DNA of 64,000 nucleotides from a virus. Taxonomy: Duplodnaviria; Caudoviricetes. Under the pieces are notes generated by a model that did not search any database, had not been told where the DNA came from, and saw nothing but the letters and a program-made list of their open reading frames with translations. The DNA lies in IMG/VR virus record IMGVR_UViG_3300020399_000132, positions 96,001 through 160,000 of that record. The stretch is one strand, 5' to 3'. Of this stretch, positions 8,968-16,710 are shown one piece after another; the first letter of the stretch is position 1; every line of letters starts with the position of its first letter. Made by a program: the position numbers and the translations under genes.

Positions 8968-9051
8968 TGGTGGGGAGAGATGGAGTCGAACCATCACAGC
9001 CTCAGGCGGCAGATTTACAGTCTGTTGAGCTCACCAATGCACAGCCTCCCC
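8968..9051 (-). tRNA. tRNA-Tyr(GTA)
   Basis: GGGGAGG/TCTCCCC acceptor, loop CTGTAAA, long variable arm, GGTTCGACTCC, CCA. Confidence 0.9.
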
Positions 9052-10380
9052 ATTAAGTATTTCTACTAACAAAGGATCTAAGTAGTCTTTATAACTTTGA
9101 TCCCTAACTTCATCTAAAATAATTATTTCCGTTTTCATTTTTTTAACATCACCATTATGATTATCAATCGCGTTTTGTATTTGACCAACTAAATTATGAA
9201 TATTAAATCTATACCACTTCTTATATTCTTTCCCTCTTATAGTTGCATGTACAGTATCAGATTGTGCAACAGTAGCTATTCCAGATTCAGTAATATCTAT
9301 AATCCGATCAAGAGCAATCTCTAATAATTCCTTTGGCATATTCCTAATTGATGTTCCCCTATTATCTGGATACATTTCTGAAAAATGAATATACCAATCA
9401 GGAATTTTATAGTGTGCACATTTATTACATATCCATTCTATATAATCAGCAACATTTAAAATATTTAAAGATGACAATACCATATTAAAATATTGATGTT
9501 TAATATTTGTACATGTACTAAGATAATGATCTAAACTTTCATTTAATTTTTTCCAATCAGAATTATGTCGGATATAATTATATGTTCTATGGGTGCCATC
9601 TATACTGAACGTATGCCCCTGCTCTTTAAAATTATTTAATAGTTTTGATAGTTCCGGTGTAAACTGAGTAGCATTAGTATGAAACTTTAAAATTGTATTT
9701 TTACTTGCTTCCGTTTCGACATATCGTTCTAATACTTTAACTACTCTTCTATCATAAAATGGTTCGCCTCCAGAAGCTTTTAACATTGTTATCTTGTGTG
9801 TATTATTCAATAACCAATCAATAACACTGTTATTATCTTTATCATAGATAACACCTTTTACATCAGGCATTGCATTATTACTAGCTTTCATAAAGGAATT
9901 ATGTAAACCCTTTACTTTCATCTTCTCAACGTCTTTACCCAATTGATGAGATGAACCCACATTACACATTCTGCAGGCTAAATTGCACAGGTTAGAAAGG
10001 GTTATGTCAAACTCAAACAACCCTTCTTGATTGGGATGAGGTGGATCAGAAGAATCAGAACATTGTCTAAATGATTCTAAACCATCTTCCTCCATCTTCC
10101 AACAAACGGTACATGCTTTATTCTTTATACCATTAGATAAATCATTTCTAAGTTTTTCAAAAGATTCATGATTAAATATTTCCTCTGGACTTAAACCTTT
10201 TAAAGATCCATGGCCTAACTCATGATGTTTAACTGAACCATCTTCTTCTGAAGTAACAGGGTTCATCATCATGCAACAAGGAGTTACATTAATGGGTTCT
10301 CTTCCATCTTTAGACCATTTCTTAAAAGTCATGGCATGAAATGGATAATGACAATATGTCGGATGTGTCTTAGGATTCAT
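9031..10380 (-). CDS. Radical SAM protein with N-terminal twitch/SPASM-like Cys domain
   Basis: CNLACRMC, SGGEPF, FSIDG; N-terminal YC..PF, PCC, CTVCWKME. Confidence 0.88.
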   Translation of the reverse strand: MNPKTHPTYCHYPFHAMTFKKWSKDGREPINVTPCCMMMNPVTSEEDGSVKHHELGHGSLKGLSPEEIFNHESFEKLRNDLSNGIKNKACTVCWKMEEDGLESFRQCSDSSDPPHPNQEGLFEFDITLSNLCNLACRMCNVGSSHQLGKDVEKMKVKGLHNSFMKASNNAMPDVKGVIYDKDNNSVIDWLLNNTHKITMLKASGGEPFYDRRVVKVLERYVETEASKNTILKFHTNATQFTPELSKLLNNFKEQGHTFSIDGTHRTYNYIRHNSDWKKLNESLDHYLSTCTNIKHQYFNMVLSSLNILNVADYIEWICNKCAHYKIPDWYIHFSEMYPDNRGTSIRNMPKELLEIALDRIIDITESGIATVAQSDTVHATIRGKEYKKWYRFNIHNLVGQIQNAIDNHNGDVKKMKTEIIILDEVRDQSYKDYLDPLLVEILNGEAVHW

Positions 10381-11312
10381 TCAAATAAAATAGAAATAGA
10401 TTCATTATGATTAATTCTTCTAATCGCTTCTGAGAACATAGGTGCTATTGTTAATACTTTTACACTATTAGTTTCAAGATTTGGTATAGTATCTGTTATT
10501 ACTAAATTTGATAGGGCATCTGACTCTTCCATTTTACGTCCACCACCCTTACTTAACACTCCGTGAGTAATATACGCGCTGACTTCAATTGCTCCTTCTT
10601 TCTTTAATGCCTCAGCAGCTTTTAGAAGTGTACCACCAGTATCTACAATATCATCTACTATTATACATTTTTTCTTATTCACATTTCCAATAACATTCAT
10701 CGAAGCAATTTGATTAGCTTGCTCTCTACGTTTATCGATGATCGCTATATCTAATTGTAATTTCTTAGCCACCTTTCTTGCTCTGGCAACACCACCTGCA
10801 TCAGGAGAAACTATAACACCATTCCTTGCTATTACCATTCGATTGGGATGGGTTTCTAAATCATTAACAAACAATGGCATGGCTCCTAAATCATCTACTG
10901 GAATATCAAAGAACCCTTGTATCTGTCCAGCATGTAAATCCATTGTTACTATTCTATTAGCACCTGCCGCCTCTAACATGTTTGCCACTAACCTAGCCGT
11001 TATGGGTGTTCTGGAAACGGGCTTTCTATCTTGTCTTGCATAACCGAAATAAGGAATCACTGCAGTAATTCTACCAGCTGATGCTCTCTTACAAGCATCC
11101 ATTAGAATCAATAATTCCATTAAATTATCATTGGCGGGATTACAAATACTTTGAATGATGAATACATCCTCACCACGGACATTCTCTTTGATCATACAAG
11201 AGAGTTCATTGTCTGCAAATTTAATAAGTTCTACTTCACATAAATGTTGTCCACAATGTTGTGCAATGGACACTGCTAAATTATTATTTGAATTTCCAGC
11301 GATCAGTTTCAT
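10377..11312 (-). CDS. prs: Ribose-phosphate pyrophosphokinase
   Basis: PYFGYARQDRK, DLHAGQIQGFF, VSPDAGG, IVDDIVDTGGT. Confidence 0.97.
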   Translation of the reverse strand: MKLIAGNSNNNLAVSIAQHCGQHLCEVELIKFADNELSCMIKENVRGEDVFIIQSICNPANDNLMELLILMDACKRASAGRITAVIPYFGYARQDRKPVSRTPITARLVANMLEAAGANRIVTMDLHAGQIQGFFDIPVDDLGAMPLFVNDLETHPNRMVIARNGVIVSPDAGGVARARKVAKKLQLDIAIIDKRREQANQIASMNVIGNVNKKKCIIVDDIVDTGGTLLKAAEALKKEGAIEVSAYITHGVLSKGGGRKMEESDALSNLVITDTIPNLETNSVKVLTIAPMFSEAIRRINHNESISILFE

Positions 11313-11487: not shown

Positions 11488-11748
11488 TTATTTCCTCTTA
11501 TTCCTTTGAATGTCATCCAAATAATCTACACCTTCTTTTAAATGATCATAGGGGCCTGGTAGTACTCCTTCATATTTTTTTAGTATATCTTTTCGATGTT
11601 GCTTTACGGTCTTTCTTATATTCTGTTTTATTTCTTTTTTAGTGGGCATTGTGATTGGCTCCCTTATTTTAAAAGCTGAACTGATTTCTGCTTCTATTAT
11701 TCCTTGAACATAGTCCCAAGAATTATTCTCTACTGATATTTTGTACAT
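11488..11748 (-). CDS. Phage hypothetical protein
   Basis: RBS AAGGAG upstream. Confidence 0.55.
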   Translation of the reverse strand: MYKISVENNSWDYVQGIIEAEISSAFKIREPITMPTKKEIKQNIRKTVKQHRKDILKKYEGVLPGPYDHLKEGVDYLDDIQRNKRK

Positions 11749-11774
11749 CTCTCCTTTAATATATTTATGTGGGG

Positions 11775-11849
11775 TGGCTGCCTAGGCTGGGCTCGAACCA
11801 GCGACATTCTGATTAACAGTCAGATGTTCTACCACTGAACTACTAGGCA
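11775..11849 (-). tRNA. tRNA-Asn(GTT)
   Basis: TGCCTAG/CTAGGCA acceptor, TCTGA-CTGTTAA-TCAGA, GGTTCGAGCCC, CCA. Confidence 0.94.
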
Positions 11850-11857
11850 TTAAAACA

Positions 11858-12066
11858 TGTAGGGTAGAGCCTAGACTATCCCGAAAGATAACTCTTGCAA
11901 GACACTCGGGTCTCGTTCATCAAAAGTTATCTACTCCCTCACCCGGTGGCACGTACCGTTGGTCTTATTGGAGGGGAACTCTTAACTTCATCTAGGTAGA
12001 TCACTTAGTCGCACTCAGTACTAAGGTCCGTCCCCCGTTCCTGGCTTTAGTGTCGTTTACCCTACA
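11858..12066 (-). ncRNA. Candidate structured non-coding RNA (~209 nt)
   Basis: Closed by TGTAGGGTA/TACCCTACA; several internal stems; no ORF; GC-richer than flanks; 8 nt upstream of tRNA-Asn. Confidence 0.7.
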
Positions 12067-12068
12067 AT

Positions 12069-12323
12069 TCAAATCATCTTATACCATTCAGTAGGTATCT
12101 TATCTAACATCATACAGTTTTTATATAAGTCCGATCGCTTCCTCATAAAGCTACGAGCAGTCGTATCATTATTATATATTCGTCCTTCAAATCGGCCATC
12201 ATTATATTCAACTATTAATCCGCAATGCCAGACACGGCCAGACGCAGCCAAGTCCCCCATCGCTCTCACAGGAACTTCCGCAACTCCACACGCCGACAGC
12301 GCGCGCTCTATAAGTTTACCCAT
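12069..12323 (-). CDS. Phage hypothetical protein
   Basis: ORF with AGAG upstream. Confidence 0.5.
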   Translation of the reverse strand: MGKLIERALSACGVAEVPVRAMGDLAASGRVWHCGLIVEYNDGRFEGRIYNNDTTARSFMRKRSDLYKNCMMLDKIPTEWYKMI

Positions 12324-12393
12324 ACTCTCTTTTCGTTTAGCCGTAGGCTGATTATTTATTAGTGGTTTAGGGCGCGAAGCGCCCTTCGGCTCG

Positions 12394-13212
12394 TCACTTC
12401 TTCTCTAGACCTTCGCCAAAGGCTGTTTCTGGTAAGGAACGTTCCAGATCCGTTAGATCTTCATCTGATGCAGCTAAGTGCAAAACTTCTCCATAAGCTT
12501 TTCTTTGATCTCTCTCACTCTCTAATTCTGCAATGAAATCATTTACATCCATAGCGGCTCCTTGTGGCTTTGATGTCTCTTCTGTCTTCTTCCTTGTCTC
12601 TAACTTTCTTTTCCTCTTGCTCCAGGATTTCTTTGCTTGGTCCTTCCAGCTCTGTCCATCTATATTTCCATCCGAAACAAGTTTCTGTATTTTTCCACCA
12701 CCTGCTAAGAAATCATCTACTGCGTTTCTAATCTGTTGCCTATCTATTATATCATCTACGCCTTTCGATGCGGCAGCAGCACTTTTCAGGCGGTTCTTGT
12801 CGGCGCTAACTGTACCTGCCCATTTCTTACGCACGGCTAAATTTTGTTTGTTTGCCTTAGCAATAATAGAATCTTCTTGTGCTTTCTTTGTTGCTTTTTT
12901 CTCTAGTAGATCTGTTCCTGCCACTCCACGTTTAATCTTACCACTAATCGCTGCGTTAGAGAATCCTGTAGCACTTGCAATTTCTGCTACGGTCATTCTA
13001 GTTTTTCCTTGCGAGTCTACAGCAAATACTCTAGGATTTTTTCCGGAGCGTTTTGCACCTTCTGAATTACGCTGTAAATAAATTGTATCTGCATCGTGAT
13101 TAAACTTATGCATTAGATTACTCATCCTACAATACGAAAGATTAAAGAGCTTTGCTAGCTCTCTCATCGTGTGTAGGGATTCGTGGAATGGGTATAATTT
13201 CGCTTTAGCCAT
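12394..13212 (-). CDS. Early basic protein with HTH-like segments and SutA-like motif
   Basis: TMRELAKLFNLS and TVAEIASATGFS HTH-like; AVDDFLAGGGKIQKL; directly behind consensus promoter. Confidence 0.55.
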   Translation of the reverse strand: MAKAKLYPFHESLHTMRELAKLFNLSYCRMSNLMHKFNHDADTIYLQRNSEGAKRSGKNPRVFAVDSQGKTRMTVAEIASATGFSNAAISGKIKRGVAGTDLLEKKATKKAQEDSIIAKANKQNLAVRKKWAGTVSADKNRLKSAAAASKGVDDIIDRQQIRNAVDDFLAGGGKIQKLVSDGNIDGQSWKDQAKKSWSKRKRKLETRKKTEETSKPQGAAMDVNDFIAELESERDQRKAYGEVLHLAASDEDLTDLERSLPETAFGEGLEKK

Positions 13213-13258: not shown

Positions 13259-13303
13259 ATTATAATATATTCGGGGCAACATGTCAACGTTTTTCTTTCG
13301 CAA
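13259..13303 (-). promoter_or_regulatory. Early sigma70 promoter module, copy 2
   Basis: TTGCGAAAGAAAAACG-TTGACA-N17-TATAAT. Confidence 0.85.
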
Positions 13304-15666: not shown

Positions 15667-16710
15667 TTATAGTATTTGTTTATCATTATGATGGTCTATC
15701 CATCTTTGTAAACCTTTGGAATTCCCGTTCCATCCAGTGTCTTTATAGATCGTTTCTATGAGTATTTTTGTTATCTCATATGGATTAGCGTTGCCTGCTG
15801 GTCGTCTATCTTCTAGGTAACCTGTAGTATAGTTTGATTCAACTGTCTCTACTGGTATTCTTACACTAGCACCTCTATGACCTTCTCCGTAAGTGAATTC
15901 GTCTATTGATGCAGTCTCGTGCTTACCTGTCATTCGTTGATCATTGTCTTTACCATATACAGCTATATGATCCGCGTGTGTGCTTTCCATATTTTTTAGG
16001 ACCTGCATATAGACTTTGTGTGATGAGTTGTTTCTCATCTCGTTCGTACTAAAATTTGTATGCATGCCAGAACCGTTCCAGTCTCCTTTGATGGGTTTAG
16101 GTTCTATATTAATATCGCAGCCATGTTCTTCTGCGATTCTCTCTAGGATGTATCTTGACATCCAGAGGTCGTCACCAGCATTTTTTGCGCCTTTACTGAA
16201 CACCTGATATTCCCATTGACCGAGAGCTACTTCTGCGTTCGTACCCGTAATAGTAATCTCTGCTTCTATGCATGCTTCCATGTGATCGTTGACGACTTCT
16301 CGCCCTGCGACTTTACTAGCGCCCACACCACAATAATATGGACCCTGAGGTCCTGGTTCTCCGCTCTCCGGCCAGCCTAGTGGTTTGTTGGTGTCGGACT
16401 CACATAAAAAGTATTCTTGTTCGAATCCAAACCAGTAACTATCGGAGTCGACAAACGTTATTGCCTCTCTCTTTTCGGTTGAACACATGACGAGCCAGCC
16501 ATTAAAATGAAATGAATTATGATAGATTTTGACAGGAGTTAGTTTACAATCTGATTTATCGCCAGGTGCTTGACCTGTTGACGAACCGTCATAACCCCAG
16601 ATGGGCACGTCTCTCAGTTCATTAATCTCTATGCTTGTGATCTTTATTTTGCTACGTAGTTGCTCATCTGCGTCCAGCCATACGTATTCAAGTAGTGTCT
16701 GTGTGGTCAT
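15667..16710 (-). CDS. glnII: Glutamine synthetase type II
   Basis: LEYVWLD, WGYDGSSTGQA, QGPYYCGVG, NAEVALGQWEYQ, GDWNGSGMHTNFST, GYLEDRRP; 347 aa. Confidence 0.95.
   Translation of the reverse strand: MTTQTLLEYVWLDADEQLRSKIKITSIEINELRDVPIWGYDGSSTGQAPGDKSDCKLTPVKIYHNSFHFNGWLVMCSTEKREAITFVDSDSYWFGFEQEYFLCESDTNKPLGWPESGEPGPQGPYYCGVGASKVAGREVVNDHMEACIEAEITITGTNAEVALGQWEYQVFSKGAKNAGDDLWMSRYILERIAEEHGCDINIEPKPIKGDWNGSGMHTNFSTNEMRNNSSHKVYMQVLKNMESTHADHIAVYGKDNDQRMTGKHETASIDEFTYGEGHRGASVRIPVETVESNYTTGYLEDRRPAGNANPYEITKILIETIYKDTGWNGNSKGLQRWIDHHNDKQIL

Follow-up and report, generated by a model that had tools for sequence, protein, structure and literature searches.

In T4, which offers one of the closest comparisons for the RNA described here, the species 1 and 2 RNAs (rnaC and rnaD) are small stable RNAs of 139 and 119 nt that are encoded within the tRNA cluster, co-directionally with the tRNAs and separated from their neighbours by spacers of a few nucleotides. 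Their ends are set by tRNA processing, and for fifty years they have been without a function. Further RNAs have been described from similar surroundings: manA (RF01745), a structured RNA known from marine bacteria and cyanophages, has been reported near phage tRNA genes, and GOLLD and ROOL are ornate RNAs of unknown function that are often phage-borne and often found beside tRNA genes. Marine T4-like myoviruses, which belong to the most abundant ocean viruses, gain with the present family a complex and deeply conserved RNA gene that is unnamed in Rfam 15 and occurs in none of the GenBank phage records searched. The family is a natural counterpart of the T4 species 1 and 2 RNAs and shares with them the question of why T4-type phages retain stable RNAs other than tRNAs inside their tRNA clusters.

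The stretch of DNA analysed (64,000 nt, hereafter the window) comes from a complete IMG/VR virus record of 177,419 bp. The gp46 homolog of this phage is nearest, at 46-49% identity, to those of Methylophilales phage Melnitz and of cyanomyoviruses, and the source phage is therefore regarded as a marine T4-like myovirus. Its only four tRNA genes all lie around the RNA locus, the RNA gene is present in a single copy and a tmRNA was not found by ARAGORN in the whole phage. On the minus strand of the window, a sigma70 promoter matching the consensus at 12 of 12 positions (TTGACA-17-TATAAT, 13259-13287) is followed by a 272-aa ORF, an 84-aa ORF (12069-12323), the RNA (11858-12066) and a tRNA-Asn with anticodon GUU (11775-11849; called by ARAGORN and scoring 73.2 bits with the Rfam tRNA model). 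This promoter is the nearest promoter-like site upstream of the RNA on its strand, none being present within 11500-12600, and it likely drives a unit comprising both ORFs, the RNA and the tRNA-Asn. An earlier sequence-only reading of the window had placed a multi-stem RNA at 11858-12066 and noted that it occupies the intergenic space almost exactly. The same coordinates are returned by a covariance model built from the relatives (R1; 154 bits, E 2.8e-35, model positions 1-157 complete; alignments A2 and A3), so that the 209-nt RNA, a long form of the family, begins 2 nt past the stop codon of the 84-aa ORF and ends 8 nt before the tRNA-Asn. It is near certain that this segment is a genuine gene of a structured RNA.

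Relatives of the RNA are numerous. In the locus L002, where a neighbouring protein is 58% identical and the 84-aa ORF is absent, an RNA 81-93% identical to that of the window again lies directly 5' of a tRNA-Asn and differs from the window's copy by a clean deletion of about 50 nt. A 20-mer of the conserved core matched 15 viral contigs, a gapped pattern chosen independently in a different part of the RNA matched 31, and a 26-base pattern matched at least 120 contigs in marine metagenomes; R1 finds 103 matches of 82-181 bits in 100 loci of the at least 120 contigs listed, in addition to divergent paralogs (L028, a chance match of an 18-base pattern in GC-rich DNA, was left out). Homologs of the 84-aa ORF occupy the same position in seven other loci; as a query for related loci, this ORF returned no relatives among viral contigs. 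All DNA runs in which the window's copy is present carry the label of a marine or seawater metagenome, and the neighbouring genes in family contigs are replication genes of the T4 type, namely sliding clamp and clamp loader, as well as a gene for a CobS-like protein. The family is thus widespread in uncultured marine T4-like myoviruses and often embedded among tRNA genes.

Outside these viruses, two independent gapped patterns gave no match in 185,579 prokaryote species genomes, and sensitive blastn of 50,697 GenBank phage records with the region and with a short-form member returned only the tRNA or nothing. R1, which is positive on the source genome, finds nothing in Melnitz, HTVC008M, S-RIM32 or T4 (NC_000866, at E<=10). 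At gathering threshold, the 4227 models of Rfam 15, among them manA, GOLLD, ROOL, raiA, 6S, SRP, RNase P, tmRNA, Y RNA and the known ribozymes and riboswitches, match only the four tRNAs in the 64-kb window, and at E<=10 there is no credible match overlapping the RNA in the 501-nt region, a short-form member or a type B member (see below). The earlier impression that the RNA belongs to no assignable family thus holds even at this permissive threshold, and the RNA is not manA, GOLLD or ROOL, the candidates then named. Nor does the RNA contain a tRNA- or tmRNA-like domain, as ARAGORN calls the flanking tRNAs only and the Rfam tRNA match stops at 11849. The family is new relative to Rfam 15; a catalogue of structured RNAs from IMG/VR lists 8,495 unnamed candidates (PMC10690425), which could include the same family. 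Since an alignment and a covariance model now exist, the family can be searched for and tested directly.

How far does the RNA resemble the systems described so far? In location the window's copy corresponds to rnaC and rnaD, an analogy of function only: it lies 8 nt from tRNA-Asn, and two relatives (L004 and L122) lie between tRNAs. The T4 RNAs are shorter than the 160-220 nt of the family and resemble it in neither sequence nor structure, sharing no motif with it by inspection and escaping R1 as stated above. With manA there is no match at gathering score and none at E<=10 in any of the three queries. GOLLD and ROOL are three to four times larger, whereas in the family two arms issue from a single three-way junction. 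The topology of 5S rRNA, too, comprises a helix closing both ends, a three-way junction and two arms, and by eye a short segment around CCCAUACC..GAAGUUAAG, which pairs differently in the family, resembles it; a 5S rRNA mimic was considered and rejected, as no 5S model matches at E<=10. The family RNA is also 40-90 nt longer. YrlA and similar Y RNA-like RNAs are likewise modular and stable, with ends that form a long stem, and some are phage-encoded and processed like tRNAs. The present RNA, in contrast, lacks a tRNA-like module and an Rfam match, and neither Ro60/TROVE nor RtcB, nor Hfq, was detected in the source phage, although Ro60 could still be host-encoded. The pRNA of phi29 is also phage-encoded with its own promoter and has a three-way junction and loops free for intermolecular pairing, a feature to which the self-complementary, invariant ACGU loop of the family may be compared, its pairing role being putative. 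The phi29 pRNA, however, belongs to the packaging motor of phi29-like podoviruses and has no sequence similarity to the family. T4-type phages package their DNA without an RNA.

Judged by itself, the window's copy offers weak evidence of structure. Its minimum free energy (-61.9 kcal/mol) lies close to that of shuffled sequences (-57.9 +/- 4.3 kcal/mol; z-score -0.94) and the other strand is no different; the 12 complementary 6-mers compare with a mean of 6.1 in dinucleotide shuffles, 38/500 of which do equally well or better, and a 9-mer complement is present in 37/500. Because these statistics barely exceed those of shuffles, the case for an RNA gene rests on the relatives. From a structure-blind MAFFT alignment of 25 sequences, RNAalifold derives a nested fold with the helices P1, P2, P3, P3a, P4 and Px, in which 18/31 pairs are compensatory. 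In a hand-curated structure of 39 pairs, 96.0% of the cells of the same 25 sequences are paired and 21/39 pairs show compensatory changes, a result reached by 0/500 shuffles, while slid controls on this alignment pair only 25-50% of cells. With 90 distinct sequences aligned by the covariance model, the figures rise to 96.3% and 28/39 (again 0/500 shuffles), in an alignment that, unlike the MAFFT alignment of 25, leans towards the model. Paired columns contain 205 G-U or U-G cells against 42 A-C or C-A cells, which fixes the strand of the RNA, and since stop-free stretches are short (median length of the longest in the six frames, 28 aa), the RNA does not code for protein. Homologs from at least 120 contigs and covariation in up to 90 distinct sequences, the kinds of check that had been called for, bear out the earlier view that the minus strand encodes a non-coding RNA with several stems.

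The same data speak to the possibility that the segment acts as DNA, for example as a recombination site, an origin or a mobile miniature element, or that its short complements arose by chance. Such an explanation could draw on the weak single-sequence statistics, on the several different genomic contexts in which the family occurs and on the presence of an identical 84-aa neighbour beside a clearly different copy of the RNA (see below). It is nevertheless highly improbable, being at odds with compensatory changes in 28 of the 39 pairs, with the preference for G-U over A-C on one strand only, with one copy per genome, with the lack of terminal-repeat or target-duplication features and with contigs from RNA libraries that cover the RNA.

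The consensus fold (all coordinates on the minus strand) is organised around a three-way junction of P1, P2 and P4, whose joining strands AAAYGA, CUCUA and CUCU are almost constant. P1, formed by UGUAGGGUA (12058-12066) and UACCCUACA (11858-11866), is the 9-bp closing stem recognised earlier, and every one of its pairs covaries; its core pairs are compensatory in 7/7 cases with 98.9-99.8% of cells paired, and across the family it measures 7-15 bp. P2 pairs GACACU (12049-12054) with AGUG-A-UC (11999-12005), and its CACU/AGUG is replaced by CUCU/AGAG in 18/90 sequences and by CAUU/AAUG in L013. The P3/P3a arm (12011-12045) covaries in P3a (GGAG/CUCC, GAAG/CUUC, CAGAG/CUCUG, CAAAG/CUUUG) and is capped by the invariant 7-nt loop GGACGGA (12027-12033), which is identical in 15/15 loci found by a pattern that did not contain it. 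P4 pairs CCUAGAU (11990-11996) with GUCUAGG (11870-11876), 6/7 of its pairs being compensatory (CUUAAA/UUUAAG, GCUAGA/UCUAGC and, in type B, CUCUGG/CCAGAG), and it is followed by an asymmetric internal loop whose 5' side, GAAGUUAAGAG.. (11977-11989), is near-invariant in alignments A2 and A3, reads GAAAUUUAAGG in type B and faces AUAG at 11877-11879 together with adjacent bases. In Px, the strand CCCCUCC (11970-11976) finds its partners in GGAG (11934-11937) and in GGG (11880-11882), a helix represented in short forms by CCUAUCC/GGAUAGG, UUCUAUC/GAUAGAA or CCUAUAC/GUAUAGG. The P5 hairpin (11943-11962) carries an invariant ACGU in its loop and has outer CC/GG and inner GG/CC pairs, for which GC/GC in L033 is compensatory. 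Finally, a variable insert (11883-11933) forms an extra hairpin with a 12-bp outer and a 6-bp inner stem and turns Px into a three-way junction. Joining strands and internal loops are conserved more than the helices, and about 60 unpaired nucleotides are near-invariant across at least 120 contigs.

Apart from P1, most of the 11 pairings that had been read from the single sequence are not supported by this fold. CGGT/ACCG is a real hairpin, namely P5, but in an alternative register, and GACACT is indeed a strand of P2, but its true partner is the segment at 11999-12005 rather than the proposed AGTGTC, which lies in the insert. AGCC/GGCT gives way to a pairing in which G-G of GGCU covaries with CC of CCUAGA; instead of GGGGGAC/GTTCCCC, GGGAC is a loop and CCCC pairs with GGG and GGAG; CTTAGT/ACTAAG, TCTT/AAGA and TATC/GATA compete with covariation-supported helices. 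The long-range complements AAGTTA/TAACTT, ATCTAC/GTAGAT and CGGGT/ACCCG each have one partner in the insert of about 50 nt that is missing from 84/105 distinct copies. As to the suspected pseudoknot, a mutual-information scan yielded neither a conserved one nor extra long-range pairs, only subfamily correlations in P5. Two further interpretations of conserved elements were tried and discarded: for a pairing of AAAGCC.. with ..GGCU.. like P4 of RNase P, columns 79 and 218 covary mutually and not with the invariant GCC, and the consensus does not accommodate a K-turn or a T-loop in the conserved internal loops.

Members of the family fall into two size classes. Insert-free short copies of about 155-167 nt make up 84/105 distinct members and long copies of about 200-222 nt the remaining 21/105. 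The window's copy is of the long form, with its hairpin of about 50 nt placed within the 3' strand of Px; when 18 long forms are folded with RNAalifold, the Px 3' strand is likewise split around the insert, and the same insert hairpin appears in the minimum free energy fold. At least two unrelated insert sequences occupy this site. Some phages contain two copies, L044 for instance one short and one long. In addition, a divergent type B paralog scoring 33-58 bits with R1 was found in four loci, directly 3' of a type A copy in L045:1371-1582(+) and L011:4934-5127(+), alone in L160:8885-9093(+), and furthermore at L040:24-236(-). Type B has its own insert and a 7-nt loop AGGUAGA in place of GGACGGA. 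It retains P1, AAACGACA, GUGCUCUAC, a P4 that covaries to CUCUGG/CCAGAG, GAAAUUUAAGG, the GGUA..GCC hairpin and GCUCU, and because of this retention these elements are regarded as the functional core.

A separate observation concerns the 84-aa neighbour. In L055:568-776 and L077:4751-4959, the upstream 84-aa protein is 100% identical to that of the window and the RNA differs at many positions, the differences including compensatory changes in P1 and P2. Such a pattern suggests recombination at the gene boundary.

The genomic context of the family bears on how the RNA is produced. Among the 105 distinct loci, an ARAGORN tRNA lies within 40 nt of the RNA in 26, ending 9-10 nt upstream in 10, starting 6-17 nt downstream in 20 and flanking the RNA on both sides in four; L004 has the order tRNA-Asn, 10 nt, RNA, 14 nt, tRNA-Asp, and L122 the order tRNA-Pro, 10 nt, RNA, 12 nt, tRNA-Tyr. 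The proposed link to tRNA genes is thus frequent but not obligatory. A promoter-like TTGAC-N16-19-TATAAT is found at most 70 nt upstream in 19/105 loci, and in L008 an extended -10 promoter matching at 12/12 positions ends 20 nt before P1 and is followed by the RNA and then by tRNAs. In the remaining loci the RNA is situated between co-directional ORFs, with all neighbours in the direction of the RNA. The RNA of the window has neither a tRNA nor a promoter directly upstream. The idea that RNase P sets the 3' end is plausible for the window and for 20/105 loci, but since only 26/105 loci have a tRNA close by, RNase P processing cannot account for maturation across the family. Flanking sequences, lineage-specific yet mutually complementary, lengthen P1 to 9-15 bp in about half of the loci, so that the ends of the mature RNA would be base-paired, as in other stable RNAs.

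Two side observations were made on the tRNA genes themselves. A tRNA-Tyr(GUA)-like gene directly follows the RNA in L008:5304-5386(+) and occupies the same place in many loci (e.g. L016, L040 and L044); its variable arm is long and its D-arm aberrant, and it scores 23 bits with the Rfam tRNA model against a threshold of 29 and is not called by ARAGORN. In L068:11347-11555(-), a close relative of the source phage, the 84-aa ORF and the RNA are kept and no tRNA-Asn lies downstream, indicating that RNA and tRNA are gained or lost independently.

What follows the RNA is relevant to a cis-acting role as riboswitch or attenuator. In such a role, the conserved junction and loops would serve as binding site for a small molecule or protein, and P1 together with a U-rich tract would terminate or attenuate downstream transcription. 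The size of the RNA, its three-way junction and its many invariant unpaired nucleotides are indeed reminiscent of large aptamers. A U-rich tract (a mean of 6.5 T in 12 nt) directly follows P1, the next gene begins 6-35 nt downstream, and in 19/105 loci the RNA sits between a strong promoter and tRNA genes. Yet the downstream genes are mutually unrelated, comprising three tRNA species (tRNA-Tyr, tRNA-Asp and tRNA-Asn), a phrog_1574 protein and several other ORFs, a variety too great for a classical riboswitch; no protein gene consistently adjoins the RNA across loci. Moreover, a conserved alternative pairing that could act as anti-terminator is absent, a simple terminator scan is empty at the 3' end of the RNA, and the confinement of transcript contigs to the RNA weakly suggests that it accumulates separately. 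Control in cis is therefore considered unlikely.

The transcript contigs come from RNA libraries, six of which contain 13-20% of the words of an 801-nt query around the RNA. Two metatranscriptome studies each contributed one contig on this 801-nt stretch, both wholly within the RNA: one of 185 nt (11871-12055) with 1 mismatch (99.5% identity) and one of 194 nt (11862-12055) with 3 mismatches (98% identity); a third study contained pieces of relatives. These contigs are assembled, so that ends, strand and level cannot be read from them and DNA carry-over is possible, and the missing cover of the flanking ORFs and the tRNA in X16 and X17 carries no evidential weight. Their confinement to 11858-12066 is accordingly a weak hint at a discrete, abundant RNA. 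The contigs of three RNA runs end at the same base, 12055, which would be of interest if the RNA were catalytic and either excised itself from tRNA or mRNA precursors or acted on another RNA. A ribozyme would also agree with joining strands and internal loops that are more conserved than the helices and with a location in polycistronic units where ends must be generated. Base 12055 is, however, a polymorphic C/T column and may mark an assembly break, a molecule starting there would lose the fully covarying P1, and no ribozyme family of Rfam is matched even at E<=10, all of which makes catalysis very unlikely.

The reading favoured here, with somewhat better than even confidence, is that of a stable trans-acting RNA that is matured together with tRNAs where it adjoins them. 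The structure and the existence of the gene are near certain under this reading, whereas the processing and the action in trans are what we infer. Host sigma70 RNA polymerase would transcribe the RNA early, either from its own promoter or within a tRNA-containing unit, and tRNA-processing enzymes would cut it out where tRNAs flank it; in the window, the RNase P cut that forms the 5' end of tRNA-Asn would leave the RNA with a tail of 8 nt. Its base-paired ends would protect it, and a discrete species of about 160-210 nt would accumulate and act in trans, the invariant loops and the junction forming a surface to which a conserved partner would bind specifically. This partner would probably be a protein or an RNA, of host or phage origin, with a part in translation or RNA processing. 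A reverse transcriptase (RVT_1) as in a retron-type partnership gave no match in the complete 177-kb phage, with positive controls.

A different target in trans is conceivable as well, as the RNA might serve as a decoy or sponge directed against host defence or a host factor, binding for instance a host nuclease or signalling molecule, and be carried along with phage tRNAs since both would answer RNA-targeting immunity. That the RNA travels with phage tRNA genes, stands behind early sigma70 promoters, is confined to phages (no match in the 185,579 prokaryote genomes with either pattern) and occurs as two diverged paralogs in some phages would fit this idea, but such support is purely contextual. 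The RNA mimics neither a tRNA nor an anticodon loop, ARAGORN and the Rfam tRNA model leaving it untouched, and a defence-related partner was not identified, so that a decoy appears improbable. A more far-reaching proposal, tentative and rather doubtful, is that of a new functional RNA class with sophisticated biochemistry in abundant ocean phages, which could comprise ribozymes or else, as high-affinity aptamers or sponges, bind a host factor or a small-molecule immune or metabolic signal, with dimers or rings possibly formed via the self-complementary ACGU. In past cases, structured RNAs of this size with many invariant unpaired positions were ribozymes, riboswitches or ribonucleoprotein cores. 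The near-invariance of about 60 unpaired nucleotides and the core kept in the diverged paralog fit a sophisticated role of the RNA better than that of a mere stabilising or processing element.

Some features in the surroundings of the RNA deserve mention in their own right. The 272-aa early protein (12394-13212, minus strand) matches, below the Pfam thresholds, an HTH domain and the RNA-polymerase-binding domain of SutA (for the latter E 1.9e-5 and 24.4 bits, the cut-off being 29.3), and may be a factor directed at the host RNA polymerase. Between its ORF and the 84-aa ORF lie a GC-rich hairpin without a U-tract (GGGCGC-UUCG-GCGCCC, 12365-12392, minus strand) and a second, small hairpin (12337-12351), which may be processing or pause sites within the unit that contains the RNA. 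Genes for a radical-SAM protein and a ribose-phosphate pyrophosphokinase (PRPP synthetase) are interspersed among the phage tRNA genes (9031-11312, minus strand), and a glutamine-synthetase-like protein is encoded at 15667-16710 of the window.
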